32,000 nucleotides of DNA from Candidatus Methanoperedens sp. (GTDB lineage: Archaea > Halobacteriota > Methanosarcinia > Methanosarcinales > Methanoperedenaceae): assembly GCA_027460525.1 (NCBI GenBank), contig JAPZAS010000020.1, positions 38,598-70,597 on the forward strand, read 5' to 3'. Both the position numbers and the translations under genes were made by a program. A model generated the notes under the pieces. The model saw only the letters and a program-made list of their open reading frames with translations. It searched no databases and was not told the origin of the DNA. Below are positions 9,580-31,280 of the stretch, piece after piece (position 1 is the stretch's first letter; each line of letters begins with the position of its first letter).

Positions 9580-10392
9580 TTATTTTTCTTGTTGGTGTAT
9601 CTTAATTCCTATCGTTGCGACGTTTATGAATGTCTCAACTGTATTTTTCCCTTCTTCGGTAATTTCTATATACGACGAGCGCCCCTTCCCCTTTTTAACA
9701 GTCCACTCCTTATCTTCGAGTTTTTCAAAAAACTGCCTCTTTGCTTTCGCATATCCTTTTTTGGTTATTTCTTTATTCTTTCCTCGCTTTCCAGTAGCAT
9801 CTTTTATAAGACCTCGTTTTTCAAGCTCGAAAATGTACTCTTTCTGGGATATTCTTCCACCGTGCTCAGAAAGTATTGCAAGCGCGTGAATAAGTTCGTC
9901 CATCGGCGGCTCGATTGTGTATGTGGGTATCTTTAGTATTCTTTTAACGCCGCTGGTGATTCCTATAATCTTCCCGCCTTCGATGTCGGGATGCTCGATA
10001 TTATACTTCTCTGCCTGGACATAATACGGCACGGCGCCGTACATGAGCGAGGCGAGGGTGCCTGCTATTGCTGAGAGTTTGCTCCCTGATGAGAGGTTGA
10101 TGTAGACAAAGTTGCCGGCTGCTTTTTCTTTCCGCACAAGTTCGCAGAGCAGCGACATCTGCCTGCGGAAGTCCCAGATAGGACAGGAGAGGATGATAAG
10201 TTCCTTCTCTCTCACCAGCTTTTCTATCCTGCCGGTGAGTTCTTTGAGATACAATTTTCCTATATCTTTCTCTTCCTCATCCGTTATTATGTAAACCCTG
10301 TCAGCGCCAATGTCGCGCAGCGGAGTTTCGATGCGGTCTATCTCGTAGCCCATAGGTACGATGTGTACTTTTTTCTGTCCTGTTAGTTCCAT
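9580..10392 (-). CDS. Csa3-like regulator with an N-terminal CARF-like Rossmann domain and a C-terminal wHTH
   Basis: It is divergent from cas8b. The N-terminus reads KVHIVPMGYEIDRI...VYIITDEE...YINLSSGSKLSAIAG, which fits the CARF-type strand-loop and SxGxK-like motifs. The C-terminus LAILSEHGGRISQKEYIFELEKRGLI looks like a wHTH. The assignment comes from pattern and context, not from a search. Confidence 0.5.
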   Translation of the reverse strand: MELTGQKKVHIVPMGYEIDRIETPLRDIGADRVYIITDEEEKDIGKLYLKELTGRIEKLVREKELIILSCPIWDFRRQMSLLCELVRKEKAAGNFVYINLSSGSKLSAIAGTLASLMYGAVPYYVQAEKYNIEHPDIEGGKIIGITSGVKRILKIPTYTIEPPMDELIHALAILSEHGGRISQKEYIFELEKRGLIKDATGKRGKNKEITKKGYAKAKRQFFEKLEDKEWTVKKGKGRSSYIEITEEGKNTVETFINVATIGIKIHQQEK

Positions 10393-10406
10393 ATTCTGTC
10401 AGGTTA

Positions 10407-10438
10407 GTAACATTGGTAACGTTACAAATAAATGTAAC
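10407..10438. promoter_or_regulatory. GTAAC/GTTAC palindrome cluster (candidate operator) in the 5' region of the Csa3-like gene
   Basis: GTAAC occurs at 10407-10411. A perfect 10-bp palindrome GTAACGTTAC lies at 10416-10425. An inverted repeat GTTAC-N8-GTAAC spans 10421-10438. The cluster sits between a TATA-like CTATATTT (minus strand, about 10448-10455) and the ATG at 10392. Confidence 0.4.
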
Positions 10439-10521
10439 GGCGGAAAATTGAAATATAGGGAGCGCAAAATTAGAGTGTTTATTCCTGCGGCGCGGAATAC
10501 TTTCGCACCGCTTTGGTTATG

Positions 10522-10529
10522 TATATAAA
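10522..10529 (+). promoter_or_regulatory. TATA-box-like element (TATATAAA), candidate promoter of the interference operon
   Basis: This is the only strong TATA-like octamer in the divergent intergenic region. An archaeal transcription start roughly 25 bp downstream would fall just 5' of the iteron triplet at 10562-10591. Confidence 0.3.
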
Positions 10530-10561
10530 GAGATAAGTGTTCTAATCAAAACAGAAAAACG

Positions 10562-10591
10562 AACCGCAGATAAACGCAGATGAACGCAGAT
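10562..10591 (-). repeat. Iteron triplet, three tandem 10-mers (ATCTGCGKTY read on the minus strand)
   Basis: The plus strand reads AACCGCAGAT AAACGCAGAT GAACGCAGAT. This is the reverse complement of the triplets at 17198-17227 and 17559-17588. Confidence 0.85.
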
Positions 10592-10712
10592 TAACTGCAT
10601 TGAGGGAGCATGGTGATAATAACTTGAATACAGGTATCGAAACCAATGGCGCAAAGCCCGCCGATGGGGCGCGGGAGGAGCATGAGGAGGAGGGGGCGGG
10701 AGAAGTGATATA

Positions 10713-12758
10713 ATGTTGAGAGATATTAAACAACTTACTGAATTGTATTTACAGAATAAAGAAGTGCTCCCCGCTGACCAAACATGGGAAGTTTTTCATG
10801 ACGAATTGATTACAAATGCATCGTTAGAAAATATTAAAGTGCTTGCAGATGCAATCCCAAATAAATGCAAATATGCTTTATTTGTCGATATTGACATCAA
10901 AGCGAAAACCTATGAAATTAAAGATTACGTTGAAATTGGTGCAATTGAAGATTGGACAGCTCATTTATTTTGGCAAGGTTCGGGCGGGGCAAAGAGCGAT
11001 AAGGTTAGAAGCACACCACACAAAATCTATTCTAAAAAAGGAGATTTCTCAGCATCAGATTTTATAGATCCGCTTGAAACTATATTGGAAGATTATTGCT
11101 TTATTAAAGAGGATACAAAGAAAAAAGGGAAACTGAAGACAGTAGGACCATTATTTTGGGATGAAAAAAATATAGATTCAAGAGATTGGCTGCAAGGTGT
11201 AGTTGAAGTTTTAAAAGTTAATAAAGAGAAAATAGACCAAGATGTAAAAGAAAAATTCCCAGCGAAGGATTCCGTATTTGTAGGATTGACTATTGATAAT
11301 AAACCAATTGGAGAATATGAATTATTCCGCCGTTATTTATTATTTGTAAGATTGCGTTCAGGAATCCAAAAAGGAACGGACTTATTTAAAAATAGGATTA
11401 CTTCAGAAGTTATTAAGGAACAAAAATTGATAGGAGTTTGTCCCTCATGTCAATGTGAAAAACCACTTTTAAATCAATGGGCTGTGCCGGCAGAACTATC
11501 TTTTTATCAAACAACAGATAAATGTCATTTATCGTTTAAATACGAACCCGATGCCTCTTTTCGTTTATGCAGAGGTTGTTCAGATATATTATATATTTTT
11601 AAACAGCAACTTTTGGCTTCATTAACCAGAAAATTGGGTGGTGATGAGTGTTTAGTATTACCGTCTATTAAATTGATGCCAAAGGACGATACGGAAAAAT
11701 TAAGATTGTATGAAAACCTAAAAAATTTATGGGATTCTCCAAAACAAAAAATTGCCTCTACAGAAGAAAGGCTGGTTTATCGTCTTGGGAAATTGCCTTC
11801 ATATGCTACAGTAACTTTCGCCTTTGGGGATGCCATTATAACAAAAGGTGACTCAACAAATGTAAGAAGGCTCGATAAAATTAATGTTATCTTTCCAGAT
11901 GTTTTACCAAGTAGACTTTCTAAAATCGCTGATGCGATACAAAATTCAAATAAACGATTAAATGAAATGTGGGATTTAACTGGTAGGGTATGGCAGTGTT
12001 CTTGGAAGATTCAAGATGATTTTTATATATTGAAACAAATCTTTTATCCTTCATGGGAGGAAAAAAAGAAGGATAGAAGTAATACTCGACCAGAGGTAGA
12101 GAGATATTTAAGGGCAATTTTTTATGGGCAGGAGATTTTTTGTGGAGAGATTGCAGAAGATTGTTTTAGTAATTTGGTCTCCGCTATAAAAACAACTCGC
12201 AAAGCAAAAGAAGATAGCAATGACAAGTATGCTCGTGACAATTATATTGGTAATCTCTTGTCTTTATTTGTTTTTTTTGAACAACTAAAAGAAAACAATA
12301 ATCGATACAAAAAGGAGGTGAAAACCATGTCAGACAAAACACAGTTTGAATTCACTGCTATGCCAAATTTAGGCAAGTTTGTTGAAATGCATCCATTATT
12401 CAAAGACAGCCAATATCTGGCTCCATTCTTTGTTGGATGTCTATTTTCTTATGCTGAAAATTTGCAGAAAGAAAACAGCCGACTTGCTGCATATAATTGG
12501 CTTGGAACGATGAGTTTGAAATATAATGATATATTGCAGGATATATATCCAAAAGCCCTGAATTATATCACAAATAAGGAAAAGATTGTTTCAAGCCCGA
12601 GGCTGCAGGAGCTTATGAAAGCTGTTGCCCATTTTGATAAAGGAAAATGTGATAACGACAGATTGGCTTTGGTAGCTTTTTGTCACGGTTGGGCGGTAGG
12701 TAGAGATTTCATTTATATGAAAAAGGATGATAAAAAAGCGAACGCTGTAACTACATAA
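10713..12758 (+). CDS. cas8b: Type I-B large subunit Cas8b (Csh1-like)
   Basis: The 681-aa ORF sits directly upstream of cas7-cas5-cas3. It has a zinc-ribbon-like CPSCQC...CRGCSD. The size and position match Cas8b. Sequence-level family membership was not verified. Confidence 0.7.
   Translation: MLRDIKQLTELYLQNKEVLPADQTWEVFHDELITNASLENIKVLADAIPNKCKYALFVDIDIKAKTYEIKDYVEIGAIEDWTAHLFWQGSGGAKSDKVRSTPHKIYSKKGDFSASDFIDPLETILEDYCFIKEDTKKKGKLKTVGPLFWDEKNIDSRDWLQGVVEVLKVNKEKIDQDVKEKFPAKDSVFVGLTIDNKPIGEYELFRRYLLFVRLRSGIQKGTDLFKNRITSEVIKEQKLIGVCPSCQCEKPLLNQWAVPAELSFYQTTDKCHLSFKYEPDASFRLCRGCSDILYIFKQQLLASLTRKLGGDECLVLPSIKLMPKDDTEKLRLYENLKNLWDSPKQKIASTEERLVYRLGKLPSYATVTFAFGDAIITKGDSTNVRRLDKINVIFPDVLPSRLSKIADAIQNSNKRLNEMWDLTGRVWQCSWKIQDDFYILKQIFYPSWEEKKKDRSNTRPEVERYLRAIFYGQEIFCGEIAEDCFSNLVSAIKTTRKAKEDSNDKYARDNYIGNLLSLFVFFEQLKENNNRYKKEVKTMSDKTQFEFTAMPNLGKFVEMHPLFKDSQYLAPFFVGCLFSYAENLQKENSRLAAYNWLGTMSLKYNDILQDIYPKALNYITNKEKIVSSPRLQELMKAVAHFDKGKCDNDRLALVAFCHGWAVGRDFIYMKKDDKKANAVTT
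12327..12758 (+). CDS. cas11: Putative Cas11 small subunit made from an internal in-frame start within cas8b
   Basis: AAAAGGAGGTGAAAACC precedes the in-frame ATG at 12327; (12327-10713) is divisible by 3. The 143-aa product is MSDKTQFEFTAMPNLGKFVEMHPLF.... No separate cas11 gene exists in the locus. Internal Cas11 translation is established for types I-B, I-C and I-D. Confidence 0.45.
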   Translation: MSDKTQFEFTAMPNLGKFVEMHPLFKDSQYLAPFFVGCLFSYAENLQKENSRLAAYNWLGTMSLKYNDILQDIYPKALNYITNKEKIVSSPRLQELMKAVAHFDKGKCDNDRLALVAFCHGWAVGRDFIYMKKDDKKANAVTT

Positions 12759-12770
12759 GGAGGAAAGAAT

Positions 12771-13955
12771 ATGAATAATCACTTAAAAAATAGGCACGAA
12801 ACCCTTTTTTTATGGGATGCACGAAAGAGTAACCCAAATGGAGACCCCAATGGGAATGAACCACGTATTGATAGGCATACCAAGCGATGCGATATCACAG
12901 ACGTATGCATTAAGAGGTCGATAAGAAATTTTATCACAACTAAATATGGATTAAATAGTATTCTTGTTACTAAACTTGGAGATGATGCATCAGAGACCGT
13001 AACATTAACTGATAGAATTTCAAACTATCTATTCGGTACAGCCGAGAAAATCAAAAAATTAAAAGATATAGTTGAAAAACATGCTGAAGGCAAATTGGAC
13101 AAAACATTAGAACCTTATAAATCCTTTAATGAAAAACCTTCACCTGCAACTTTAAAAACAATAATAAGTTCCAAAAAAGAAGATAAAGATAAATTGAAAA
13201 AGATATTAATTAATAAAGATATCGATATTGAGACACTTCAAAGTGGAATAATTAAAGATTTAAGAGCTTATCTCTGCGGCGCATTTTCAGATCTACGAAT
13301 GTTTGGAAGCGTGCTTGCATTGGAAAAAGAGTTAAATCCTTTAGGAGGACCTATCACAGGGCCAATTCAGATAGAAATTGGTACTTCTCTTCATCGTGTA
13401 GTTCAATCCAACAAGCAAATTACGAGTGTAATGGGAAGTAAGGAAGAGAAAGAAGCTGGGATTATTGGTGACACTCATTGCATCGAGTATGGTTTGTTTG
13501 CAACCAGTGCCATAGCAAATGAAAATGCGGCGAAATTTACGGGTTTAACTGCTGAAGATCACGATTTATTCCTAAAAACTCTCTGGCGTGGAACTCGTGA
13601 ACGTCATACTCGAAGTAAAAATCAAGTTCCAAGACTGTTGATAGACATAGAATATAACAAGCCATTTCATTTCGGTGATCTAGTGAATAGTGTTGGATTG
13701 AAGCCGAAATTTGATGAGAAAGTTGGAAAAACCATAGAAGAAGAAAGTTATAGAAGTATAGATGACTTTACTATTGATTTAACTGGATTCTTCAATAAAA
13801 TTGACTCAAAAAAAGAATCTGTGGATTCTATTAAATTTGCTTCCTATGGGCTAATATCCTTAAAGGAATTTAAAGAAGGACTACCAAAAGAATTAGTTAA
13901 CAATATATTTGAACTTACAGATATCGATTTTGATAAAGCGCCGGAAACAAAATGA
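12771..13955 (+). CDS. cas7: Cas7 backbone subunit (Csh2/Csd2-type, I-B)
   Basis: The N-terminus LFLWDARKSNPNGDPNGNEPRIDRHTKRCDITDVCIKRSIRNFI is the hallmark of the Csh2/Csd2 Cas7 family. DLRMFGSV is also present. At 394 aa it is longer than usual, with a Lys-rich insertion around residues 85-160. Confidence 0.85.
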   Translation: MNNHLKNRHETLFLWDARKSNPNGDPNGNEPRIDRHTKRCDITDVCIKRSIRNFITTKYGLNSILVTKLGDDASETVTLTDRISNYLFGTAEKIKKLKDIVEKHAEGKLDKTLEPYKSFNEKPSPATLKTIISSKKEDKDKLKKILINKDIDIETLQSGIIKDLRAYLCGAFSDLRMFGSVLALEKELNPLGGPITGPIQIEIGTSLHRVVQSNKQITSVMGSKEEKEAGIIGDTHCIEYGLFATSAIANENAAKFTGLTAEDHDLFLKTLWRGTRERHTRSKNQVPRLLIDIEYNKPFHFGDLVNSVGLKPKFDEKVGKTIEEESYRSIDDFTIDLTGFFNKIDSKKESVDSIKFASYGLISLKEFKEGLPKELVNNIFELTDIDFDKAPETK

Positions 13956-14653
13956 AAATCATATCTTTTTGTATGCAGGGGAGGTTCGCCCATTTCTGTA
14001 TACCCTTTACGAATGTTTATCGACTCACTCAACCTTGCCCCACTAAAACGGCAATATTGGGCTTTATTGGTGCTGTATTGGGTATAGATAAGGACAATCT
14101 GAGCCTCTATCAAAAGTTCAAATGTGGTGTCGAAATACTCGGTGAATACAGAACAATAGCTATTCCTTACCTCGCCAGACAAGGTTTTCCTGGAAGCTCT
14201 TCAAATAAAGATTCTTCAAGAACTTCTGTTGAAGTGGTAGTTAAACCAAGATATAGAATATATCTTCTCGGAGAGGAGGATTCCATTAGAGATATTCAAA
14301 AGGTATTGTCGTATCAGGAACCTGTATATACACCATATCTTGGATTAGCACAATTTATTGCAAGTACCGATTTTGAAGTAAGCGATTTAACTGATGCAGA
14401 TTTTGTCGAAGGCATAGATGTAAATGCTAATGGTGCTTTCATTCGAGGAGTACATGGTGAGTTGGATTTTTCCAAATTAACCTCAGATTCAATAAGATTA
14501 ACCGAATTTCAAGGAATTAAAGGAATTTTGCCACCACGCAACTTCGAGCATGGTGTTTTCACAATTAACCTTGATGCTGGTACCATCCCTTTAAAAAATG
14601 TACGACATGTAGTGAAAATTCCAGAGTCGGATAAATATGTACCAGTTTTCTAA
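13952..14653 (+). CDS. cas5: Cas5 (I-B)
   Basis: The N-terminus GRFAHFCIPFTNVYRLTQPCPTKTAILGFIGAVLGI is the typical Cas5 motif. There is an ATGA overlap with cas7. The protein is 233 aa. Confidence 0.8.
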   Translation: MKIISFCMQGRFAHFCIPFTNVYRLTQPCPTKTAILGFIGAVLGIDKDNLSLYQKFKCGVEILGEYRTIAIPYLARQGFPGSSSNKDSSRTSVEVVVKPRYRIYLLGEEDSIRDIQKVLSYQEPVYTPYLGLAQFIASTDFEVSDLTDADFVEGIDVNANGAFIRGVHGELDFSKLTSDSIRLTEFQGIKGILPPRNFEHGVFTINLDAGTIPLKNVRHVVKIPESDKYVPVF

Positions 14654-17006
14654 TATTAAATCACATCCTGATTTACCACTTGAGAGTCATTTATCTCAGG
14701 TCGCAGATATAGCAATCAACCTATTAGAAAATAAAAAAGTGGATTTTTCAAAACTTGGAATTTCCAAAACACATATTAAAGAACTTATTAAAAGAACCGG
14801 ATTCTTTCATGACATAGGAAAAGCTACGCCATATTTTCAGAATCGATTATCAACGGGAAAAAAGGCTCCAAATGGTGAACATCAGCATACAGGGTTATCG
14901 ACCATCCTCGCTTATAAGCCTATCATGGATTATTGCAAAGAAAATAAACTTGAGGGTTATATTGCATTAGCGCCACTTATTGCGATTAAGTGCCATCATT
15001 CCGAATTTTCTAAATCATTGCCAAATGATGGTGCTATGGAATTACGCATAAAATCGTTTCACAAAGAGATTTTAGAACTATCCGACTTAAAAAACATTGG
15101 ATTGTCTATTAATGATTACCCGCCTAATCCATTAGATGTTGATTGCAAAATTGAAGACTTATTATTTGATGTTGATAGATGTTCGTCGGAACAAAAAATT
15201 AAATTTCGATTATTGACTCTTTTTATTTATTCATTGCTTCTTGAAGCCGATAAAGCTTATTTGGCAGTTAAAGACAAGGAATTATATCAGCGAAAAGCAA
15301 TAAGCATAGATAAATCTACAGTGGATAATTTTAAAATAAATAAATTTAAAAATAAAACTGGAATAATAAATAAAGACCGTGAAGAAGCCTCTTTTGAAGT
15401 AAATAACCAAATAAACAATATTAATTTAGACAATCGCATATATTCTCTTACTTTGCCAACCGGAATGGGTAAAACTTTATTGGCTGCTTCCTGGGCGTTA
15501 AAATTAAGAGAAAAAATAAATGAAAAAGACGGTTTCCTTCCTCAGGTAATTGTTGCGCTACCTTTTCTTTCTATAATAGATCAATCGGCTAAGACTTATG
15601 AAGAATTCCTAGGCAATCCAAATGAGGATATTTTTCTAAAAACGCACTCTCTTTCGCCTTTTGAGTTTAATGGCTATGAACAAAACGCAGCAGAGTTTTT
15701 TATTAATATTTGGAAATCCCAAATAATCATGACCACCTTCGATCAACTTTTATATACTTTTTTAAGTTTCAAACCAAAACACCTTATGCGCTTTCATAAT
15801 TTGATGAACAGCATAATTATTATGGATGAAATACAGGCTTTGCCTCCCCACTTATGGAATCCATTTAACACTTTTATAAAATACATAACCGAAATTGGAA
15901 ATAGTTATCTTCTTGTTATGTCAGCTACACAACCTCGTTTTTTAGATAATGCCATCGAAATAGTTACTGACAAAAAGGTAGGAGAATTAGTTAAAGGACC
16001 TGAAAGATATTTTGAAAAATTATCTCGCTATAAACTAATATTGAAACATAAGGAGCCCAAAGCCATAGATGATTTTATTGAAGAAATGAAAACTGAGCTT
16101 AAAAATTTAAAAGAAAATAAAATTATGTTTGTCCTCAATACGAGAGATTGTGCAAAAAGAATTTACGAAAAATTGAAAGAATATTCTGATGGCAGAGAAA
16201 CATACTTTCTTTCATCTTATGTAATACCTAAAGAAAGATTGGAAAGAATCGAGAAAATAAAAAATTCAGACCGCGCTTTAGTTATAACCACCCAATGTAT
16301 TGAAGCTGGTGTGGATATTGACATGGATTACGTTATTAGAGATTTAGGACCGTTAGATTCAATAATACAAGTTGCTGGACGATGCAACCGTGAAGGTGAA
16401 AAAAATACCAAGTCCGTAGATATCATTCGATTATATGATCCAAATGCAAAGAGTCCTTTCAGTCCAAATGGTGAATTTAATGTAATGGTTTATGACGAAT
16501 TATCTATTGGAGCAACTCTTAAAATCTTAGATGAAGTCTTAAAGAAAGAAGGGAAAGAAATTATAGAAAGTAAGGTTTTTGACTTAGCAAAGCAATATTT
16601 TATTGAATTGCGCCGAAAAGATTTGGGAGTCTCTAGGACCGAATGTTTAATTGACTTATCCCACGAATACAAAAAAAACGGTAAACCAAATAAGTTCAAT
16701 ATTCGTTCAGAGTTAAGGGGAAATCTAAAACAATATAACTTGATTGTTGAAAAATTCGTACCTGATTTGAAGAATGAAATTGAGCAAATATTTAACGAAA
16801 AAATAGATCGATGGGAGCGAAGAAGAAAACTTAAAAACATTTCAAGCAAAATAGCAATGAATTCTATTTCGGTGAATGCATATAATTTTAATCCAGATGA
16901 AATTGCAAACCGAGGAAAAGGCGATTTTTATTTTCTTGAGTCGAAATATTATGATGAAGATGTTGGTTTTAATTATAAAACACCCCCAAGCGTATACATA
17001 ATATGA
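14637..17006 (+). CDS. cas3: Cas3 HD nuclease-helicase fusion
   Basis: HD domain motifs are FHDIGKATPYFQ, HTGLS and KCHHSEF. Helicase motifs are LPTGMGKT (I), MDEIQ (II) and QVAGRCNREG (VI). It overlaps cas5 by 17 nt. Confidence 0.9.
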   Translation: MYQFSNIKSHPDLPLESHLSQVADIAINLLENKKVDFSKLGISKTHIKELIKRTGFFHDIGKATPYFQNRLSTGKKAPNGEHQHTGLSTILAYKPIMDYCKENKLEGYIALAPLIAIKCHHSEFSKSLPNDGAMELRIKSFHKEILELSDLKNIGLSINDYPPNPLDVDCKIEDLLFDVDRCSSEQKIKFRLLTLFIYSLLLEADKAYLAVKDKELYQRKAISIDKSTVDNFKINKFKNKTGIINKDREEASFEVNNQINNINLDNRIYSLTLPTGMGKTLLAASWALKLREKINEKDGFLPQVIVALPFLSIIDQSAKTYEEFLGNPNEDIFLKTHSLSPFEFNGYEQNAAEFFINIWKSQIIMTTFDQLLYTFLSFKPKHLMRFHNLMNSIIIMDEIQALPPHLWNPFNTFIKYITEIGNSYLLVMSATQPRFLDNAIEIVTDKKVGELVKGPERYFEKLSRYKLILKHKEPKAIDDFIEEMKTELKNLKENKIMFVLNTRDCAKRIYEKLKEYSDGRETYFLSSYVIPKERLERIEKIKNSDRALVITTQCIEAGVDIDMDYVIRDLGPLDSIIQVAGRCNREGEKNTKSVDIIRLYDPNAKSPFSPNGEFNVMVYDELSIGATLKILDEVLKKEGKEIIESKVFDLAKQYFIELRRKDLGVSRTECLIDLSHEYKKNGKPNKFNIRSELRGNLKQYNLIVEKFVPDLKNEIEQIFNEKIDRWERRRKLKNISSKIAMNSISVNAYNFNPDEIANRGKGDFYFLESKYYDEDVGFNYKTPPSVYII

Positions 17007-17036
17007 CAAATCCTTAACAAATACAAAAGTGTAATT

Positions 17037-17189
17037 ATGATCCTGAAAACTTTCCCCCTCGCCCCCGCCCTCCCCATCACACAGGCGCGGCGCAGCACGA
17101 CAGACGGCGCGCAGGGATTTCATGACGGCGCCGGACTTATAAATGATGTTTATGATAAATACGATGAAATAAAAATATGGAGAACATGA
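17037..17189 (+). pseudogene. Degenerate cas6 5' copy 1 (in-frame 50-codon mini-cas6 ORF)
   Basis: My translation is MILKTFPLAPALPITQARRSTTDGAQGFHDGAGLINDVYDKYDEIKIWRT*. It aligns with Cas6 residues MLLKTFTL... and ...MIDGAPMVIGINDGAEVLKQVYDKYDEIKL across an internal deletion that preserves the frame. Confidence 0.6.
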
Positions 17190-17197
17190 AACAACCA

Positions 17198-17227
17198 ATC
17201 TGCGTTCATCTGCGTTCATCTGCGGTT
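17198..17227 (+). repeat. Iteron triplet (ATCTGCGTTC ATCTGCGTTC ATCTGCGGTT)
   Basis: These tandem 10-mers were read directly. The same triplet recurs 361 bp downstream and, inverted, at 10562-10591. Confidence 0.9.
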
Positions 17228-17298
17228 CGTGATTTCGATACGCATAGCCTGCCTCGGATGCCTATCGGCGCGCCGGACAGTTTAAAATATTTAGCTCT

Positions 17299-17329
17299 GA
17301 GTTCGTACGAGTTCGTATTGAGTTCGTTG
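17299..17329 (+). repeat. Second short tandem repeat (GAGTTCGTAC GAGTTCGTATT GAGTTCGTTG)
   Basis: Three consecutive 10-11-bp units were read directly. They are present only in the first unit of the cas3-cas6 spacer region. Confidence 0.7.
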
Positions 17330-17410
17330 TTTATATTCCATCTCGCTCTGCGCTCTTTGCGTTCATCAGCGGTTAATGAATCCGATAGTGAAATTAACCT
17401 TCCACACGTA

Positions 17411-17547
17411 ATGCTCCCCGCCCCCCCATCCTCCCCACTCATGCGCGGCGCATCACGACAGACGGCGCGCCGGGACTTTGTGGCGGCGCCAGATTTATAA
17501 AGATGATTTATGATAAATACGACAAAATAAAAATATGGAGACCATGA
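17411..17547 (+). pseudogene. Degenerate cas6 5' copy 2 (frameshifted)
   Basis: ATGCTCCCCGCCCCCCCATCCTCCCC...GACGGCGCGCCGGGACTTTGTGGCGGCGCCAGATTTATAAAGATGATTTATGATAAATACGACAAAATAAAA is homologous to copy 1 and to cas6. However, the YDKYD segment is out of frame with the ATG. Confidence 0.55.
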
Positions 17548-17558
17548 AAACTGAACAA

Positions 17559-17588
17559 ATCTGCGTTCATCTGCGTTCATCTGCGGTT
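17559..17588 (+). repeat. Iteron triplet (ATCTGCGTTC ATCTGCGTTC ATCTGCGGTT)
   Basis: Its sequence is identical to the triplet at 17198-17227. Confidence 0.9.
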
Positions 17589-17692
17589 TGTTATTTCTAT
17601 AAACAGAAGTTGCATCGGCTTCCTATCGGCGCCGAAATTATAAAAAATTGCTTTGATAAATATCATGAAATAAAATCAGATGAGGATTGCAA

Positions 17693-18385
17693 ATGCTCCT
17701 GAAAACCTTCACCCTCACTCTCGCCTCCACCCGCCCCATCCACGCCCCAGCCTCGCTTCTGCGCGGCTTCTTCGCCACAAAGTTCAACGAATACTCCCTC
17801 TTCCACCAGCACAATGCAGACAGGCTCATCTACCGCTACCCTCTCGTACAGTACAAGATGATAGACGGCGCGCCCATGGTCATCGGCATCAATGACGGCG
17901 CCGAAGTTTTAAAACAGGTTTATGATAAATACGATGAGATAAAACTCGGCGAGGAGGTTTATGAGATCGTCGAGAAAGGCATCGCTGTGAGAAATCAGGA
18001 GTTCGGGATAAGCGATAAGTTCCATTCCTATGAGTTCATCACACCATGGCTTGCGCTCAATCAGGAGAATTACATGAAGTACTACGGTCTTAAGAGTCAT
18101 GAGGATAGACATGAATTCCTGAGAAAAACGCTCATTGGGAACCTTCTATCCATGTCGAAAACGCTGGATTATCAGGTGCCTGAAGAGATAAAATGCGATG
18201 TCCAGGTAAATATCAGGAAAAGCAAGTTGAAAGATGTAAACGTGATGACCTTCATCGGAAGATTCTGTACCAACTTCATCATACCTGATTATCTTGGCAT
18301 CGGGAAATCGGTTTCAAGAGGATTTGGCGCCGTTATCAGAAATAATGATTTAAAAATGAACTTTAATAATATATACCAAAGTTAA
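17693..18385 (+). CDS. cas6: Cas6 crRNA endoribonuclease (Cas6b-like)
   Basis: The C-terminal glycine-rich loop LGIGKSVSRGFGAVI is the Cas6 signature. The size and context are RAMP-like. The ATG at 17693 is preferred over 17687 for two reasons: GAGGA lies 7 nt upstream, and the degenerate upstream copies align from this ATG. Confidence 0.8.
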   Translation: MLLKTFTLTLASTRPIHAPASLLRGFFATKFNEYSLFHQHNADRLIYRYPLVQYKMIDGAPMVIGINDGAEVLKQVYDKYDEIKLGEEVYEIVEKGIAVRNQEFGISDKFHSYEFITPWLALNQENYMKYYGLKSHEDRHEFLRKTLIGNLLSMSKTLDYQVPEEIKCDVQVNIRKSKLKDVNVMTFIGRFCTNFIIPDYLGIGKSVSRGFGAVIRNNDLKMNFNNIYQS

Positions 18386-18458
18386 CAAATATGAGAACTA
18401 TAGTGTATAAAATAATTAGAAAATATCCCCCTGAAATGCAGGAGACCATGTTGAGGAA

Positions 18459-18920
18459 GTGAAATCGGTGACCATGCAGACGAAAAATAAGTTGCCCGTT
18501 GAAAAACTCATCAGCAAGCTGAATAAAGAATTTGAATTTATAAACGACGAAGTTGAAGGTATTTTACTTTATGGTTCATGTGCATTGAATACTGCGGATG
18601 AACGCTCTGATATAGACATATGCATCATTAAACCCCGGACACACGGAATTTTGAACAGGATTTTTCAAAAGGTTGGCGATAAGTACGATGTGAAAATCTT
18701 CGAAGAGCTGCCCCTTTATGTAAAAATAGACATAATCGAAAACTACAAAGTGGTATACGGAGATGAGCCCTCGATTTCTTATTATTTCTACAATTTCAGA
18801 AAAAATTGGGAAGACATGGAATACAGGATAGTGAACAACAGATTCCGCACTGTATCTGAGATGAACATAACCAGGAGGAGATGGTTTGAAAGAAGAAGAC
18901 AGGTACCTGTCAAAGGTTGA
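18459..18920 (+). CDS. mntA: Minimal nucleotidyltransferase (MNT), putative antitoxin
   Basis: ILLYGSCALNTADERSDIDICII matches the GS...DxD NTase motif. The start is uncertain (GTG at 18459 or ATG at 18474). It overlaps the downstream HEPN gene. Confidence 0.7.
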   Translation: MKSVTMQTKNKLPVEKLISKLNKEFEFINDEVEGILLYGSCALNTADERSDIDICIIKPRTHGILNRIFQKVGDKYDVKIFEELPLYVKIDIIENYKVVYGDEPSISYYFYNFRKNWEDMEYRIVNNRFRTVSEMNITRRRWFERRRQVPVKG

Positions 18921-19269
18921 AAGATTTACCGAGGAAGAAGAATTTATTTCTACACACACGATAGACAATGACGTAACCGAGCGCGCCTTGCTGTATTCTC
19001 TTCAGGTTGTAGTAGAGATATCCATGGATATAATTGCCATGAAAGTACGGGACATGGGCTTGAAGGTCGAAGATGACGCCACGAATATTGAAAAAATCAC
19101 AGATAAAAAAATAATATCACAAAACGAAGGGGATTTTTTAAGACAGATGAACGGGGTCCGGAACTTCATAGTCCACAGGTATGATTATCTTGATATGGAT
19201 ATTGTAAATGAGGCTCTTTCAAGAATCAACGAGCTAAAAGGGATAATCGTAAAAGTGGCAGAATACTGA
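18886..19269 (+). CDS. hepT: HEPN (DUF86) domain protein, putative RNase toxin
   Basis: RNFIVHRYDYLD matches the Rx4H HEPN motif. The TTG start at 18886 is preceded by AGGAGGAG. The gene is paired and overlapping with the MNT gene. Confidence 0.7.
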   Translation: MKEEDRYLSKVERFTEEEEFISTHTIDNDVTERALLYSLQVVVEISMDIIAMKVRDMGLKVEDDATNIEKITDKKIISQNEGDFLRQMNGVRNFIVHRYDYLDMDIVNEALSRINELKGIIVKVAEY

Positions 19270-19270
19270 C

Positions 19271-20239
19271 ATGCAACTCGTAATAAACACGCGCGGCGCG
19301 TATCTCAAAAAGGAAAAGAACTGCTTCCTTGTGAAGAACGACGACAAGAGCTTTGAGGTTTCAGCCGACAAGGTGGACAGCATACTCATAACAACTTCAG
19401 CGACCATTACCACAGATGCTATCGAATTTGCAGTTGAGAACAATATTGATATTGTATTCCTGAACTACTTTGGCGATCCTTACGGCAGGGTGTGGCACTC
19501 CAAGCTTGGAAGCACGACACTTATACGGCGCCGGCAGCTTGAAGCTGAAGCCTCATCTGTGGGGTTCAACCTGGCGCGCGGCTGGATAGCGCAGAAGCTT
19601 GAGAACCAGCTTGATTTCCTCAAAGACCTGAAAAAGAACCGACCCGATGACTATGAGACTTTCGGGCAGTACATTGTGAAAATTAGCCAATCGAAGGATG
19701 ACCTCATGAACATGAAAGGCTCACTTGACGAAAAGCGCGGCTCGATAATGGGGATGGAGGGCATGGCTTCATTGACGTATTTCGAGGCGCTAGCCAGCAT
19801 TATGCCAGAGACATGGAAGTTTGCAGGAAGAAGCCGTGACCCGGCGCAGGATGCTTTCAACTGCCTCCTCAACTACGGTTACGGGGTTCTGTATTCACAG
19901 GTCGAAAAAGCATGCATCATCGCAGGACTTGACCCATATATGGGCTTCCTGCACACCGATAATTATAACAAGAAATCCTTTGTTTTCGACCTTATTGAGA
20001 TTTTCAGGATACATATCGACAGGACGGTTATAAACCTTTTTTCAAAAAAACAGGTGCATGAGGGCTTATTCGACAAAATCCCCGGCGGCTTATACATGAA
20101 TAAGGATGGTAAAGCGGTATTGATCTCAGCGGTCAATGAAACCCTTGACAAAGAAATCGAATACAATGGGCGCAATGTCAAAGTCAGGAACACGATCCAG
20201 ATGGAATGCCACAGCATAGCGAACAGTTTGATAAAATAG
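19271..20239 (+). CDS. cas1: Cas1 integrase
   Basis: The 322-aa product begins MQLVINTRGAYLKKEKNCFLV...ILITTSATITTDAIEFAVENNIDIVFLNYFGDPYGRV and contains NCLLNYGYGVLY and DPYMGFLH. These are canonical Cas1 motifs. Confidence 0.9.
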   Translation: MQLVINTRGAYLKKEKNCFLVKNDDKSFEVSADKVDSILITTSATITTDAIEFAVENNIDIVFLNYFGDPYGRVWHSKLGSTTLIRRRQLEAEASSVGFNLARGWIAQKLENQLDFLKDLKKNRPDDYETFGQYIVKISQSKDDLMNMKGSLDEKRGSIMGMEGMASLTYFEALASIMPETWKFAGRSRDPAQDAFNCLLNYGYGVLYSQVEKACIIAGLDPYMGFLHTDNYNKKSFVFDLIEIFRIHIDRTVINLFSKKQVHEGLFDKIPGGLYMNKDGKAVLISAVNETLDKEIEYNGRNVKVRNTIQMECHSIANSLIK

Positions 20240-20250
20240 GAGGAGCTTAA

Positions 20251-20544
20251 ATGACAATGGTTTGGGTGGTTTACGATATTGCAGATAACACCACGCGCAA
20301 GAACGTCGCACGCATCTGCCTTGACAAAGGGCTGTACCGGGTGCAAAAGAGCGTTTTTCTTGGTACTCTTAATGCAAACGATAGGGATTCTCTCGCCCTG
20401 GAATGCGAGGAAGAAATCGACCTCGATGTTGATTCTGTATATGTTTTTCCGATGGATGACGAATCGTTCAGGAAAGTAAAGCTCCTCGGTCAGGCTTTTG
20501 ACAAAGAGCTTGTGAGTGATGAGGTATTGACAAAATTCTTTTGA
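20251..20544 (+). CDS. cas2: Cas2
   Basis: The 97-aa product contains VVYDIADNTTRKNVARICLDKGLYRVQKSVF, the typical Cas2 N-terminal ferredoxin fold. Confidence 0.85.
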   Translation: MTMVWVVYDIADNTTRKNVARICLDKGLYRVQKSVFLGTLNANDRDSLALECEEEIDLDVDSVYVFPMDDESFRKVKLLGQAFDKELVSDEVLTKFF

Positions 20545-20556
20545 AGAAAATAGATT

Positions 20557-21147
20557 ATGACTGCCGGAGATACGATTATCACCATTTCTGATGTGCTTGA
20601 GTACCTTTTCTGCCCGCGTTTCATTTATTTTATGCACTGCCTGGATATCCCGCAGCATGAGGAATCGAGGTTCAAGGTTTTGAAGGGAAGGGAAGTCCAT
20701 GAGGAAAAACGGATAACGAATACGGAGTACCTGCGAAAGAAACTCGGAGTTGTGAAAAAAGAACTGAACGTATTCATTGCTTCAAAAAAGAACCACATTA
20801 AAGGGATTGTGGACGAGATTCTGTTCCTTGATGACGGGACTGCAGCGCCTTTTGAATATAAATTTGCTGAGTTCAAGGATACTATTTTCAAAACCCACAA
20901 ATTCCAACTAGTGCTGCATGCCATCATGATTAAAGAGAATTACAACATTGATGTAAGAAGAGGATTTATCTGTTTTACACGAAGCAATAACCACATCGAA
21001 GAGGTGGATTTTACGGAAAAGGATTTTAAAAAAGGAATTGAAATCGTTGATGAAATCCTTGAAATCATTGACAAAGGCTTTTATCCGGGTAAGTCCAAAT
21101 ATAAGAATAAGTGCATTGACTGCTGTTACAGTAACATCTGCACCTGA
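20557..21147 (+). CDS. cas4: Cas4 (RecB-like nuclease with a 4-Cys cluster)
   Basis: The N-terminal Cys lies in YLFCPRFIYF and the C-terminal cysteines in CIDCCYSNIC. D..E.K-like nuclease core residues are present (DEILFLDD...EYKF). The gene sits directly before the leader. Confidence 0.85.
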   Translation: MTAGDTIITISDVLEYLFCPRFIYFMHCLDIPQHEESRFKVLKGREVHEEKRITNTEYLRKKLGVVKKELNVFIASKKNHIKGIVDEILFLDDGTAAPFEYKFAEFKDTIFKTHKFQLVLHAIMIKENYNIDVRRGFICFTRSNNHIEEVDFTEKDFKKGIEIVDEILEIIDKGFYPGKSKYKNKCIDCCYSNICT

Positions 21148-21255
21148 TTTTCTTATTCTTATAAACCAATCTATAATTTTATACCAAGAATTTTGAGCAC
21201 AAAATCTAAGTTATTATAGAGCATATTTTCCCCTAATTAGCCGAAAATTCGTGCT
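21148..21255 (+). promoter_or_regulatory. CRISPR leader (AT-rich)
   Basis: This 108-bp AT-rich segment lies between the cas4 stop and the first repeat and has several TATA-like runs (TTATAAA, TATAATTTTATA). Repeat degeneration occurs at the far end of the array, which supports this as the leader side. Confidence 0.7.
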
Positions 21256-22979
21256 ATTCAAGAAGCACATCCACTAAAACAAGGATTGAAACTATCCCAG
21301 TCGAATGTAGGGGATTTGCCAAGTCTTATTCAAGAAGCACATCCACTAAAACAAGGATTGAAACATAGGTATGGCATCTTACAAAAAATGCGGTAAGGAT
21401 ATATTCAAGAAGCACATCCACTAAAACAAGGATTGAAACCTGCAATGCAGGAAATGAACGGGAAAACCTACAGGATTCAAGAAGCACATCCACTAAAACA
21501 AGGATTGAAACTATAGTACCTCCTTTTTCTATAGAAAAAGGTTCTAATTCAAGAAGCACATCCACTAAAACAAGGATTGAAACATGGAAGTGCTTTATCA
21601 TTTATCAATAAATCAGTAGGATTCAAGAAGCACATCCACTAAAACAAGGATTGAAACAAGGGCATGTGAAGCTCACGGTAAGAGATGCAGAAATTCAAGA
21701 AGCACATCCACTAAAACAAGGATTGAAACATATCGAAACAGAGCAGAAGCGAATCCAGGACATTGATTCAAGAAGCACATCCACTAAAACAAGGATTGAA
21801 ACCGGAACAAACCAACATTTCAACTCCAGCCTATTCACCATCATTCAAGAAGCACATCCACTAAAACAAGGATTGAAACATATGAAAACTAAAATAATCG
21901 GAATTGTAATTTCAAATTCAAGAAGCACATCCACTAAAACAAGGATTGAAACCAGGCGGGATGGCTGCAATATCCGCTGCAGTTGGAAGTATTCAAGAAG
22001 CACATCCACTAAAACAAGGATTGAAACTCACCATGGTAGTTCAAACCCTCAAGATCAGCGATATTCAAGAAGCACATCCACTAAAACAAGGATTGAAACA
22101 ACCTCCTGTTCCGATTGTGGTTTGTCGTTGTGTTATTCAAGAAGCACATCCACTAAAACAAGGATTGAAACTTTGACAATAATATCTTGCTGGCTGTTCC
22201 TGTTTCGTATTCAAGAAGCACATCCACTAAAACAAGGATTGAAACTGATTACTGATTACCGTTATGGAAACGGATCGGTTTATTCAAGAAGCACATCCAC
22301 TAAAACAAGGATTGAAACGGAGCTCGATAATGAGGGCGGGATATATCGTAAGACTATTCAAGAAGCACATCCACTAAAACAAGGATTGAAACAGCACGAA
22401 CAATGCATCATCATTGTCAGCAAACATCGAATTCAAGAAGCACATCCACTAAAACAAGGATTGAAACTATGATATCTGTGGACTATGCCCCATGTTGCAG
22501 CATATTCAAGAAGCACATCCACTAAAACAAGGATTGAAACCATGCCTCGATAACAACCGGTCGCTGTTCCAGTTCATTCAAGAAGCACATCCACTAAAAC
22601 AAGGATTGAAACCATATTCTACGGCAGTGTGCCCTTCCCTTAACAATTCATTCAAGAAGCACATCCACTAAAACAAGGATTGAAACAATTCCCGCACCGG
22701 TGCAGGCATCGCTATATACTGTAAAATTCAAGAAGCACATCCACTAAAACAAGGATTGAAACATACCATCCTCGGACAAAGTCTGGCCGCCAAGGTTATT
22801 CAAGAAGCACATCCACTAAAACAAGGATTGAAACTTCATTATCAGATTTTACAGGGCATAAAAAATATAAATTCAAGAGGCACATCCACTAAAACAAGGA
22901 TTGAAACTAGCGACTACAACTTATCCAAGCACTCCCCAAATAATTCAAGAGGCACATCCACTAAAACAAGGATTGAAAC
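21256..22979 (+). CRISPR. CRISPR array with 24 repeats of 37 nt and 23 spacers of 35-40 nt
   Basis: The repeat is ATTCAAGAAGCACATCCACTAAAACAAGGATTGAAAC. Repeat starts, counted by hand, are 21256, 21328, 21403, 21475, 21547, 21621, 21693, 21766, 21843, 21916, 21991, 22063, 22135, 22209, 22282, 22356, 22431, 22504, 22576, 22650, 22726, 22798, 22871 and 22943. The last two repeats carry the same A-to-G change (AAGAGGCAC). The 3' ATTGAAAC is the standard I-B 8-nt handle. Confidence 0.97.
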
Positions 22980-23072
22980 TGGAGGCATAAAATGGTAACT
23001 AAAATCACATCGGTCTGGCTCACGCCTAACCCATTGTACCAGCATGATTTAAGACTAACGAATGCTGTCATG

Positions 23073-23118
23073 TTTGATGAACCGTCTAAAAAGGGCGAGA
23101 ATCTTTGCGTTCATCAAA
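23073..23118. repeat. Inverted repeat containing an iteron-like motif, at the distal border of the CRISPR-Cas locus
   Basis: TTTGATGAAC (23073-23082) and GTTCATCAAA (23109-23118) are reverse complements. CTTTGCGTTCATCA at 23103-23116 is identical to the same 14-mer in the cas3-cas6 spacer region, at about 17353-17366. Confidence 0.6.
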
Positions 23119-23161
23119 TGCCTAAGAAAACTTATTTGCTAAGTAAGCCAATCCTACCTGT

Positions 23162-23572
23162 ATGAGAACCGTTTATCTCGCAGCACCGCTTTTTTCGGAA
23201 GCCGAGCATGATTTTAACCGCAAACTCAGGGATGAGATAAAGTACGCGGGCTTTGCGGTTTTTCTGCCGCAGGAGGATTCGAACAATGTCAGGGCTGAGA
23301 ACAGGCAGAAGATCATTTTTAATAAAAACCTGGCTGCAATCGAAGGCTCGGATATAATTGTGGCTGTGATTGACGGTACGGATGTTGATTCCGGCACTGC
23401 ATGGGAAATCGGCTATGCCTTTGCAAAAAATAAACCCGTAATCGGGCTGAGGACAGATTTCCGGACGCTGGGTATTGAGGGCGTTGTAAACCTGATGATC
23501 GAGAGGTCTGCAATTCTTTGCACCAGTATTCCAGAGCTGTTAAATCGTTTAAAGCTCATGAAAACTTCCTGA
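23162..23572 (+). CDS. Nucleoside 2-deoxyribosyltransferase-like protein
   Basis: MRTVYLAAPLFSEAE...FLPQE...DGTDVDSGTAWEIGYAFAKNKPVIGLRTD matches the family pattern of PF05014-type proteins. Confidence 0.65.
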   Translation: MRTVYLAAPLFSEAEHDFNRKLRDEIKYAGFAVFLPQEDSNNVRAENRQKIIFNKNLAAIEGSDIIVAVIDGTDVDSGTAWEIGYAFAKNKPVIGLRTDFRTLGIEGVVNLMIERSAILCTSIPELLNRLKLMKTS

Positions 23573-30065: not shown

Positions 30066-31280
30066 ATGGTCCGGGATAAAATTTACAGAAGGCATGTCCT
30101 CAGAATAGCGATTGGAATTACCACTCTGGTATTATCGCTGGCGGGGGGAGCGAATGCGCAAAATATTATTAGCTCATGTACCACGATATCCTCACCAGGC
30201 GAATACGTGCTCAACACGAGCATAATTAACAGCGGTGCTCCGAGCTGCATTGATATAATATCAAGTAATGTTGTTTTTGACGGCGCGGGTTATACGATAG
30301 ATGGAATAGGGGGAATTAACACTAAAGGAGTGTTCGTTTCTAACTTCTCAATTGCGCTAACAAATGTAACTATAACAAATCTGACAGCAACACACTGGGA
30401 TTATGGCATCTACTACAGTAATACGGCAAACGGGAGCATAACTAATAACAATGCAAGCTTAAACATCAATACCGGAATCGCAATCGTCGCTTCAAGCAAC
30501 ATCACGCTGAACGGTAATAATGTCTCTAACAGTTTCAAAGGCATCGAAGTAGACTTTTCCAGCAACAATACGCTGAGTGGAAACAATGCAAGCATCGGTG
30601 GGATTTCCCTTATCTCTTCCAATAGCAACACGCTGAATAATAACGATGCAAGCATTGGTGGTATCTCAATCTCCTCTTCCAACAGCAACAATTTGAGTGG
30701 AAACAATGCAAGCTTCGGTGGGATTTCCCTTTCCACTTCCAAGAGCAACTACTTGAGTGGAAACAATGCAAGCATCGGTGGGATTTCCCTTATATATTCC
30801 AACAGCAACACGCTGAATAATAACGATGCAAACTCCTTTGACATAATCTCCCTCTTACAGTCCAACAACAATATGCTCTCAGGAAACAATGTCTCTGTTA
30901 GTAGCATCCAACCCCCCAATACGACGATGATAATCTCTGGAATCTTGCTCTATTCTTCTAACAACAACACACTCATCGGGAACAACATCTCAAACTTCTC
31001 GAACTCTTTTTTCCCCATTTTGCCTGGTGCCCAAACATCGGGAATCTTTATGGACTCATCCAGCGGCAACAACCTGAGCAGCAACAGTATCTCGAACAAC
31101 ACTTACGGCATCCTTATATCCGGTTCCAACAACAATAACCTGACCAATAACAATGTCTCAAACAACAACTACGGCATCGAACTAACCTCTTCCAGCAATA
31201 ACACCATCTACAACAACTACTTTAACAACACGATCAATGCTGTCGAAAAGTTAATTGAATTAGCTGAAAAAGGGGATTAG
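30066..31280 (+). CDS. Secreted right-handed beta-helix (PBH1/NosD-like) repeat protein without a recognisable C-terminal anchor
   Basis: It has an N-terminal signal or anchor (RIAIGITTLVLSLAGGANA). It also has many 22-residue turns (SGNNASIGGISLISSNSNTLNNNDA, repeated), encoded by 66-bp tandem DNA repeats at about 30580-30830. It ends in ...INAVEKLIELAEKGD, with no PGF-CTERM. Confidence 0.65.
   Translation: MVRDKIYRRHVLRIAIGITTLVLSLAGGANAQNIISSCTTISSPGEYVLNTSIINSGAPSCIDIISSNVVFDGAGYTIDGIGGINTKGVFVSNFSIALTNVTITNLTATHWDYGIYYSNTANGSITNNNASLNINTGIAIVASSNITLNGNNVSNSFKGIEVDFSSNNTLSGNNASIGGISLISSNSNTLNNNDASIGGISISSSNSNNLSGNNASFGGISLSTSKSNYLSGNNASIGGISLIYSNSNTLNNNDANSFDIISLLQSNNNMLSGNNVSVSSIQPPNTTMIISGILLYSSNNNTLIGNNISNFSNSFFPILPGAQTSGIFMDSSSGNNLSSNSISNNTYGILISGSNNNNLTNNNVSNNNYGIELTSSSNNTIYNNYFNNTINAVEKLIELAEKGD

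Follow-up and report, generated by a model that had tools for sequence, protein, structure and literature searches.

The stretch analysed here (the window, 32,000 nucleotides (nt) of contig JAPZAS010000020.1 of Candidatus Methanoperedens sp., identical in sequence to a contig of the Candidatus Methanoperedens assembly GCA_040223915.1) carries a type I-B CRISPR-Cas locus, in which the interference gene cas3 is separated by a gap from an intact cas6b gene, hereafter cas6 (Table 1). We found that this gap holds four cas6-derived pieces arranged in composite units. The composite unit comprises a cas6 5′ fragment ending at cas6 nt 252, a junction with a Shine-Dalgarno (SD)-like sequence and an ATGA overlap, and a segment not derived from cas6, here called P, which is non-coding and carries a near-invariant triple decamer (ATCTGCGTTC three times). 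It is probable that the gap is a decayed, cargo-less array of lineage-specific cas6-fragment-plus-P units generated by crossovers in cas6, in which the AT-rich boxes of the copied segment may now serve as a portable promoter and the decamer as a selected protein-binding site. Positions are those of the window, and individual related loci are referred to by L numbers.

The repeated composition of the gap is evident from alignments. Unit 1 aligned locally with unit 2 at a score of 254, compared with 18.9 ± 2.4 for shuffled sequences, and at ~82% identity, and the two units scored 77 and 55 against cas6 nt ~166-252, where shuffles reached ~20 ± 2. A 53-nt segment is present in four copies, at 17122-17174, 17480-17532, 17623-17675 and, within cas6 itself, 17892-17944, with nhmmer E-values of 1e-12 to 1e-16. 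Positions 17037-17069 match the start of cas6 at 82%, and the copies have a common 3′ limit at cas6 nt 252, directly after GAAATAAAA. The third copy and the leader behind it also precede the cas6 start in L018 and the old cas6 start in L016. The initial annotation had held that the gap is not random spacer but two repeat units starting at 17037 and 17411, each with a cas6-like start and an internal segment homologous to cas6, and that a third partial copy lies just upstream of the cas6 start, so that the region upstream of cas6 derives from cas6 coding sequence. Alignment at both the nucleotide and the protein level bears this description out, the last point at the level of sequence, and indicates that the similarity is not merely one of C-tracts and AT-rich runs. 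The three pieces listed there are real, but the count was incomplete, as the fourth piece at 17257-17296 and the P segments had been missed. Open reading frames (ORFs) running from the junction ATG into P (107 and 55 amino acids in the window) were rejected as genes, because they are translations of the decamer repeats that vary in length and sequence between loci and show no credible Pfam match. The minus-strand ORFs at 16842-17219 and 17206-17580 have no Pfam match.

For comparison, ~100 related loci were collected via Cas6 and divided into a close clade (Cas6 at least 79% identical, Methanoperedens) and distant loci (Cas6 at most 71% identical). In 33 of 33 distant Cas6b loci examined, cas3 either runs into the start of cas6 through an ATGA overlap or stops 5-32 nt short of it, which suggests that tight cas3-cas6 coupling is the ancestral state, and the unit is absent from them. 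Within the close clade, the interference module lies 0.5-3.2 kb from cas6 wherever this distance is measurable. The expanded gap has a cas6 5′ fragment, often degenerate, after the last interference gene, followed in most loci by the P core. The unit, or at least its P core, was found in 20 of the 26 close-clade loci with enough upstream sequence (the window included), and six shorter loci showed neither fragment nor P core within the upstream sequence present. A scan of 185,579 species genomes with the exact junction pattern returned one match, the contig of L004, implying that the unit is either narrowly distributed or fast-diverging. The C-box pattern had no match in IMG/VR.

What these gaps carry is often a toxin-antitoxin pair, namely MNT/HepT, AbiEi/AbiEii or, in one gap, DUF433/DUF5615 (PIN-like). 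The cargo varies between loci, and the window gap itself is without toxin-antitoxin genes. The fullest arrangement is that of L103, which reads cas3, fragment-P, AbiEi/AbiEii, fragment-P, MNT/HepT, fragment-P, intact cas6. Two of its fragment ORFs match Pfam Cas6b_N (3e-16 and 7e-18), and the middle fragment is recognized by nucleotide similarity only; taken with L019, the undeleted fragment ORFs (two of the three in L103) match this family at 3e-16 to 4e-20. L016 shows a window-like mini-fragment, P, the third copy and the leader TCAGATGAGGATTGCAA followed by ATGCTCCTGAAAACC. Here the window-type start belongs to a truncated fragment; behind it lie MNT/HepT and a cas6 whose 5′ allele is another one. 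In both L103 and L016, direct repeats of the cas6 end bracket the cargo and the target cas6 is intact, as at attachment (att)-type sites. The comparison across related loci, which the initial annotation had proposed, thus revealed recurrent fragment-plus-P units that bracket toxin-antitoxin cassettes. We also noted a second decamer hairpin type (CCACAGAGAGCACAGAGGACACAGAGA ... TCTCTGTGTCCTCTG) located after the P segment and before toxin-antitoxin cargo (L019 ~3100-3240; L021 2544-2771; L023 192-419; L086 7-297; L103 6170-6250 and 8340-8420). The MNT/HepT pair of the window (18459-19269) lies between cas6 and cas1; elsewhere the pair is upstream of cas6 or, in L099, on both sides.

The fragments themselves bear marks of recombination. 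A 9-nt deletion (CATGGTCAT, cas6 nt ~178-186) is common to all five otherwise undeleted fragments (L016, L019 and three in L103) and is absent from all eight functional cas6 genes in the alignment. In the hypervariable codons 16-24 these fragments carry different alleles, each unlike the resident cas6 of its own locus; two of them are close matches to functional genes elsewhere, the L016 fragment to the cas6 of L005 and the L019 fragment to that of the window. The shared deletion together with the mosaic alleles indicates crossovers within cas6 nt 1 to ~175. As far as can be read from sequence, the mosaic points to the product expected of a crossover between an intact cas6 and an nt-252-ending copy with the deletion, of which the left product would combine the old allele, the deleted 3′ part and P, and the right product would be an intact cas6 with a new 5′ allele. 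Integration of a circle (P-cargo-cas6′, Campbell-type) and unequal crossing-over between loci fit equally well. The first fragment of L003, L019 and L103 still overlaps the cas3 stop through the ancestral ATGA. Two L103 units contain a 99% identical 96-nt insert within the P core, implying recent duplication of the unit, and the first 36 nt of the L005 mini-fragment are identical to common functional cas6 alleles, which fits crossovers there during module replacement.

We propose that cas3 and cas6 were translationally coupled in the ancestor and that foreign DNA, bringing a duplicate cas6 5′ end, would have lodged in the first third of cas6, leaving an intact cas6 downstream and a truncated copy on cas3. 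Later homologous crossovers in nt 1 to ~175, between intact cas6 and upstream pseudo-copies in the same genome, in different genomes or on excised P-cargo-cas6′ circles, would repeatedly have added, duplicated, deleted and swapped toxin-antitoxin cassettes, and the same homology would permit replacement of the whole upstream interference module. In the window, the cargo would then have been lost and the fragments shrunk by internal deletions, one of them retaining by chance a 50-codon frame that is still open.

The position of the gap in the locus is in line with this proposal. Between the window and L098, L099 and L100, Cas8 and Cas7 cannot be aligned or reach at most 38% identity and Cas5 and Cas3 share 26-34%, whereas Cas6, Cas1, Cas2 and Cas4 are 80-97% identical. 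Likewise, the window Cas3 is 28-34% identical to the Cas3 of loci whose Cas6 is 80-90% identical. The GC content is 27-39% in most 200-nt windows of the interference module (10713-17006) and mostly 38-52% in the cas6-cas4 block (17693-21147), a step consistent with separate origins. On these sequence comparisons, the gap falls precisely where a hyper-variable interference module meets a conserved cas6-to-cas4 block. The cas8 5′ leader is 74-91% conserved between the window and L098 and L099, with Cas8 proteins that cannot be aligned. Conserved sequence therefore stands on either side of the variable effector module: the leader to its left, the cas6 pseudo-copy to its right. This leader is G-rich in the window (10600-10712) and also in L098, L099 and L101. 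The L098 and L099 contigs break off at the left decamer or cas8 leader or close to it, as assemblies are expected to do where conserved sequence gives way to sequence that varies between strains. Chimeric cas loci have been reported in Methanoperedens elements (PMC13444090). As in module shuffling of CRISPR-Cas systems, unrelated interference modules of different GC content stand beside a conserved cas6, adaptation and array block; unlike a clean swap, the junction here is visible as a conserved repeat of cas6 pseudo-copy and decamer box. The position at the module boundary, the bracketed cassettes and the mosaic fragments together support the suggestion of the initial annotation that the repeats are recombination scars of module exchange.

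Several points weigh against the crossover account. No integrase or recombinase family was found among the gap ORFs scanned across loci, in which all assigned families are toxin-antitoxin families. No circular intermediate was seen, L102 has the fragment without a P core, and the model leaves the founding event unexplained. The sharp boundary at nt 252, with its several partners, also fits site-specific recombination. Moreover, a pure scar should decay, yet the units are conserved and the P core is almost invariant; some part of them must therefore be selected or spreading.

The degree of this conservation can be gauged from the coding sequence. Between loci with 61-78% identity at four-fold degenerate sites, blocks of the unit reach 85-93%, and conservation is highest from TTTATGATAAATAC across the junction up to where the P core ends. 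Within cas6, codons 67-81 show a synonymous codon identity of 0.89 compared with 0.66 overall, a value reached in only 8 of 5000 column permutations (p ~0.002), and two AT-rich boxes in cas6 segment C, GTTTTAAAA and TATGATAAATAC, are invariant at synonymous sites. This peak is confined to the clade with gap repeats and missing from the distant clade; another, weaker peak of synonymous conservation was seen at cas6 codons 166-175. Directly after the nt-252 boundary stand at least five different sequences (two P types, the cas6 leader, MNT leaders and a small ORF), and most of them show an SD-like sequence and an ATG within ~5-45 nt. TATA-like boxes lie at 17137-17143, 17495-17501 and 17638-17644, and their homologues in cas6 are covered by the synonymous constraint. 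We infer that the copied segment is a promoter copied from cas6, with its 3′ edge near the transcription start, that drives cas6 and the cassettes; the AT-rich boxes would be its portable elements, and with cas6 no longer coupled to cas3, expression of cas6 and the adaptation genes would depend on the copy at 17613-17675. An equally sharp nt-252 edge is predicted if the boundary is a recombination site. It is plausible that part of the unit serves as a promoter or operator, and the triple decamer may be a protein-binding site under selection. A scan for sigma-70 promoters and terminators gave background level and was set aside, as the method is not applicable to archaea.

The decamer itself has a wider distribution. 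Four exceptions aside, the P core in mapped copies of related loci has 0-2 mismatches in 28 nt and is always on the cas strand; it is 10 nt shorter in the L005/L101 copy and is split by a ~96-nt insert in L003/L098 and in two L103 units. This insert (L003 3639-3726, L098 6150-6237, L103 5935-6030 and 8201-8296) has an internal hairpin, occupies the same P-core position in two lineages and looks like a small decamer-targeting element. Upstream of cas8, the window, L098 (3-30) and L101 (3111-3138) have an inverted copy and L100 has none; where this copy lies relative to the cas8 TATA box varies among loci. With the gap copy it brackets the interference module and the cas6 fragment, the outward ends being AACC...GGTT as in hairpin pairs elsewhere. 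The exact 28-mer ATCTGCGTTCATCTGCGTTCATCTGCGG also occurs in four unrelated viral or proviral IMG/VR contigs of 52-62% GC (L094-L097), as tight inverted hairpin pairs between genes in L094 and L095 and as single copies in L096 and L097. A variant decamer, ATCTGTGTTC three times, forms an inverted pair directly after cas6 in a distant clade (L047 5678-5838; L048 5678-6310), and direct copies of it bracket a PDDEXK_3 gene between cas6 and cas1 in both loci. Hairpin pairs are thus found in two of the four IMG/VR contigs and in L047; in the window 6.6 kb separates the two arms, and the arms inside the gap repeat in direct orientation. A literature search for the decamer string found no paper. Beyond the decamer, the cas8b leader has no significant homology to unit 1 or unit 2 (456 and 89 of 500 block shuffles reach the score) and only marginal similarity to the cas6 5′ end (7 of 500). 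An operator, a recombination end and an element like the repetitive extragenic palindromic (REP) sequences are all possible roles for the decamer.

These observations allow other weightings of the same elements. It is possible, although on balance unlikely, that the conserved block (AT-rich boxes, SD/ATG junction and triple decamer) is primarily a cis-regulatory module whose cas6 ancestry is incidental, the decamer being an operator, for example for the Csa3-like regulator encoded at 9580-10392, that co-regulates cas8b and the gap promoters. Such a role would agree with the near-invariance of the P core in more than 20 loci, its occurrence also 38 nt downstream of a cas8b TATA-like box, the similar spacing between AT-rich boxes and P core in the units (43-54 nt), the conservation of the block above neutral divergence and the HFX_2341_N and winged-helix domains of the regulator; as no RNA structure was found, the constraint would lie in the primary sequence. 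However, only the window locus (L001/L002) has the regulator gene next to it; L100 and L101, the two other loci in which the flank upstream of cas8 can be seen, do not have it there. The cas8 upstream region of L100 is also without the motif, L098 and L101 have their intact copy ~170 nt before the TATA box and a degenerate one where that of the window lies, and the exact 28-mer recurs in the unrelated high-GC contigs. The triple decamers could instead delimit cassettes that are mobile or recombine site-specifically; the inverted pair 10564-10591/17198-17225 would then bracket the interference module and the cas6 fragment as one exchangeable element, and direct copies would bracket accessory cassettes. 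We regard this as quite improbable: no transposase or recombinase and no target-site duplications were identified, the left copy is missing in L100 and the right copy in L102, and the shared 9-nt deletion and mosaic alleles are better explained by homologous crossovers, even though the inverted pair has the polarity of the IMG/VR hairpin pairs and flanks the hyper-variable module in three of four informative loci, the variant decamer brackets the PDDEXK_3 gene in L047 and L048, the L098 and L099 contigs terminate at the left copy or close to it, and the nt-252 boundary is sharp with several partners. Rather unlikely, too, is the bolder proposition that cas6 pseudo-copy and decamer box form a dedicated Methanoperedens recombination platform, integron-like without a known integrase, that captures and shuffles defence and toxin-antitoxin cassettes and exchanges type I-B effector modules via the inverted decamer. 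If it were true, each capture would re-supply a fresh cas6 5′ end and a portable cas6-derived promoter, and the synonymous constraint at codons 67-81 would mark a recognition or promoter site inside a functional gene.

The gap might also act through a product, either RNA or protein. Cas operons can have toxin-antitoxin genes embedded in them (HEPN/MNT, AbiE), and intergenic regions of type I-B loci can hold CreTA RNA modules (PMC8501985, PMC12737573). In the loci compared here, too, toxin-antitoxin pairs lie between type I-B cas genes, and a small conserved element occupies a cas intergenic region. That the gap encodes a trans-acting or 3′-untranslated-region RNA whose decamer region pairs with the cas8b 5′ untranslated region in feedback on the interference operon, or a related CreTA-like RNA addiction module, appears most improbable nonetheless. 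Positions 17193-17226 are complementary to 10559-10592 at 33 of 34 positions, an SD and an ATG follow the promoter-like boxes, and CreTA modules are found in type I-B intergenic regions (PMC8501985). On the other side, the left copy differs between loci in where it lies relative to the cas8 promoter; the best ungapped match in the gap to a degenerate, creA-like CRISPR repeat is 19/37, equal to the shuffle mean of 19.1, with no CRISPR direct-repeat match at E ≤ 1; RNAalifold of the unit gave one invariant 5-bp stem without covariation, and a single-sequence fold z of +0.84; and the creT-like SD and ATG are followed by no tandem rare codons and no stable hairpin. The window gap thus differs from CreTA and embedded toxin-antitoxin systems in having no toxin-antitoxin genes, CRISPR-repeat-like creA, creT-like rare-codon run or hairpin. 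An Rfam scan of 10300-23200 at E ≤ 1 returned the 24 CRISPR repeats and otherwise one weak, chance-level snR67 match (16947-17042, at the cas3 3′ end and the 5′ edge of the gap; 22 bits against a gathering score of 55, E = 0.77). The decoy or regulatory RNA considered in the initial annotation keeps the conservation of the units above neutral on its side, whereas an RNA family, a conserved fold and a CRISPR-like repeat were not found. A stretch of the cas8 leader, GGTATCGAAAC (10633-10643), resembles the 3′ end of the CRISPR repeat, AGGATTGAAAC; it was tried as a creA guide and rejected, with no seed match elsewhere in the window. As to a protein, the in-frame 50-codon ORF of copy 1 (17037-17189, 50 codons plus stop, product MILKTF...IKIWRT) and the frameshift of copy 2, both noted initially, are confirmed, and the product is 47% identical to Cas6 over 38 amino acids (BLASTP, E = 1e-8). 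Open versions of the frame occur in the window, L003, L005 and two database homologues, each with the ending IKIWR(T/I), and indels among them are multiples of three, as would suit a functional small protein such as a regulator or assembly factor. Nevertheless, the ratio of nonsynonymous to synonymous differences (pN/pS) is 0.68-0.87 for the in-frame versions compared with 0.19-0.21 for cas6, the frame is broken in unit 2 and L016 and shifted within the C part, yet still open, in L006, and the mini-fragment region is heavily diverged in L014, L015, L021, L025 and L032. Most of the ferredoxin-like fold is missing, the 50-amino-acid ORF has no Pfam match (neither Cas6b_N nor Cas6b_C was detected), and homologues form only 3 clusters among 5.8 billion proteins. 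The conserved IKIWRT* ending is, on sequence grounds, the translation of a junction conserved at the DNA level. The mini-ORF appears to evolve near-neutrally and shows no sign of being a working protein, so the small Cas6 N-terminal peptide offered in the initial annotation is not supported and can be called barely credible.

Table 1 Features of the type I-B locus and of the cas3-cas6 gap in the window
Feature	Position	Strand	Description
CARF/wHTH (CRISPR-associated Rossmann fold/winged helix-turn-helix) regulator, Csa3-like	9580-10392	minus	HFX_2341_N and winged-helix domain (Pfam); divergent from cas8b
Inverted P core, cas8b 5′ region	10564-10591	minus	One mismatch in 28 nt
cas8b	10713-12758	+	Interference module
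cas7	12771-13955	+	Interference module
cas5	13952-14653	+	Interference module
cas3	14637-17006	+	Last interference-module gene; Pfam Cas3_HD, DEAD, Helicase_C, Cas3-like_C_2
cas3-cas6 gap	17007-17692		686 nt
Unit 1 cas6 5′ fragment ("mini-cas6" ORF)	17037-17189	+	Similarity to cas6
Unit 1 make-up	17037-17085; 17086-17174		cas6 nt 1 to ~48; cas6 nt ~145-252 minus 9 nt; then junction ATATGGAGAACATGA
Junction	17175-17189	+	SD-like GGAG and ATGA stop/start overlap directly after cas6 nt 252; near-invariant in 10 units, 8 loci
P core 1, triple decamer AACCAATCTGCGTTCATCTGCGTTCATCTGCGGTT	17193-17229	+	ATCTGCGTTC x2.7 at 17198-17227
Truncated fourth cas6-derived piece CTATCGGCGCGCCGGACAGTTTAAAATAT	17257-17296	+	cas6 nt ~187-225; aligns with start of third copy
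Second 10-bp tandem repeat	17299-17327	+	GAGTTCGTAN x2.7
Degenerate P-core-like box CTCTGCGCTCTTTGCGTTCATCAGCGGTT	17345-17376	+	Three mismatches
Unit 2 cas6 5′ fragment	17411-17547	+	Frameshifted, 5′ end more deleted; junction as unit 1
P core 2	17554-17590	+	ATCTGCGTTC x2.7 at 17559-17588
Third partial cas6 copy	17613-17675	+	cas6 nt ~187-252; holds CGAAATTATAAAAAA, a box like the transcription factor B recognition element (BRE)/TATA, and TTTGATAAATATC; nhmmer E = 9.6e-13
cas6 leader TCAGATGAGGATTGCAA	17676-17692	+	SD-like GAGGA 8 nt before ATG; identical in L016 and L018
cas6b, intact	17693-18385	+	Pfam Cas6b_N (4e-33), Cas6b_C (1e-43)
cas6 segment C	17858-17944	+	cas6 nt 166-252, codons 56-84; source of repeated piece
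MNT	18459-18920		Toxin-antitoxin pair with HepT
HepT	18886-19269		
cas1	19271-20239		
cas2	20251-20544		
cas4	20557-21147		
CRISPR array	21256-22979		24 repeats

Two further observations concern the surroundings of the gap. A perfect palindrome, GTAACGTTAC, is located at 10416-10425 between the Csa3-like regulator gene and cas8b; it is also present in L101, and L098 has a variant at the corresponding place. Tandem repeats of 60 and 120 nt at 30557-30831 lie inside a gene for a NosD/right-handed beta-helix protein (30066-31280) and are ordinary coding repeats.

The array shares features with several known systems. Integrative elements leave partial target-gene duplications (attL/attR) at hotspots, with tandem arrays at tRNA genes, as for tycheposons and archaeal integrative elements. 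As in such duplications, a copy of a target-gene end brackets each cargo here and the target gene stays intact, and successive events give tandem arrays in which older, decaying copies lie further from the intact gene. In contrast, a protein-coding cas gene is targeted here, in its 5′ third, the cargo and its surroundings show no integrase, the crossover appears to be homologous over ~175 nt rather than at a short core site, and the repeat bounds not only small toxin-antitoxin pairs but also the swap of a whole effector module. Like integron arrays, the gaps hold repeat-bounded accessory cassettes in the same orientation at a fixed site, for which the promoter may come from the platform; unlike them, they have no integron integrase and no attC-type folded site (no conserved hairpin or covariation in the unit), and the repeated element is a gene fragment. 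The decamer resembles REP-like repeats and miniature inverted-repeat transposable elements in forming inverted hairpin pairs in unrelated contigs and in being itself the target of the ~96-nt insertion. However, the decamers in the cas gaps are single arms in one orientation, far more conserved than neutral, and occur only at cas-locus positions in the Methanoperedens-clade sequence examined.

Taken together, the duplicated cas6 5′ end would act as portable homology by which toxin-antitoxin cassettes and effector modules are swapped and cas6 is never lost, providing a sequence-level mechanism for the module shuffling inferred by classification studies. The region upstream of cas6, a copy of cas6 codons 63-84, which within cas6 itself are constrained at synonymous sites, may be a tractable example of coding sequence reused as regulation. 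For annotation, short "Cas6b_N" ORFs and 50-amino-acid hypothetical proteins beside cas3 in these genomes should be treated as pseudogene fragments. The near-invariant triple decamer is found also in unrelated bacterial and phage contigs.

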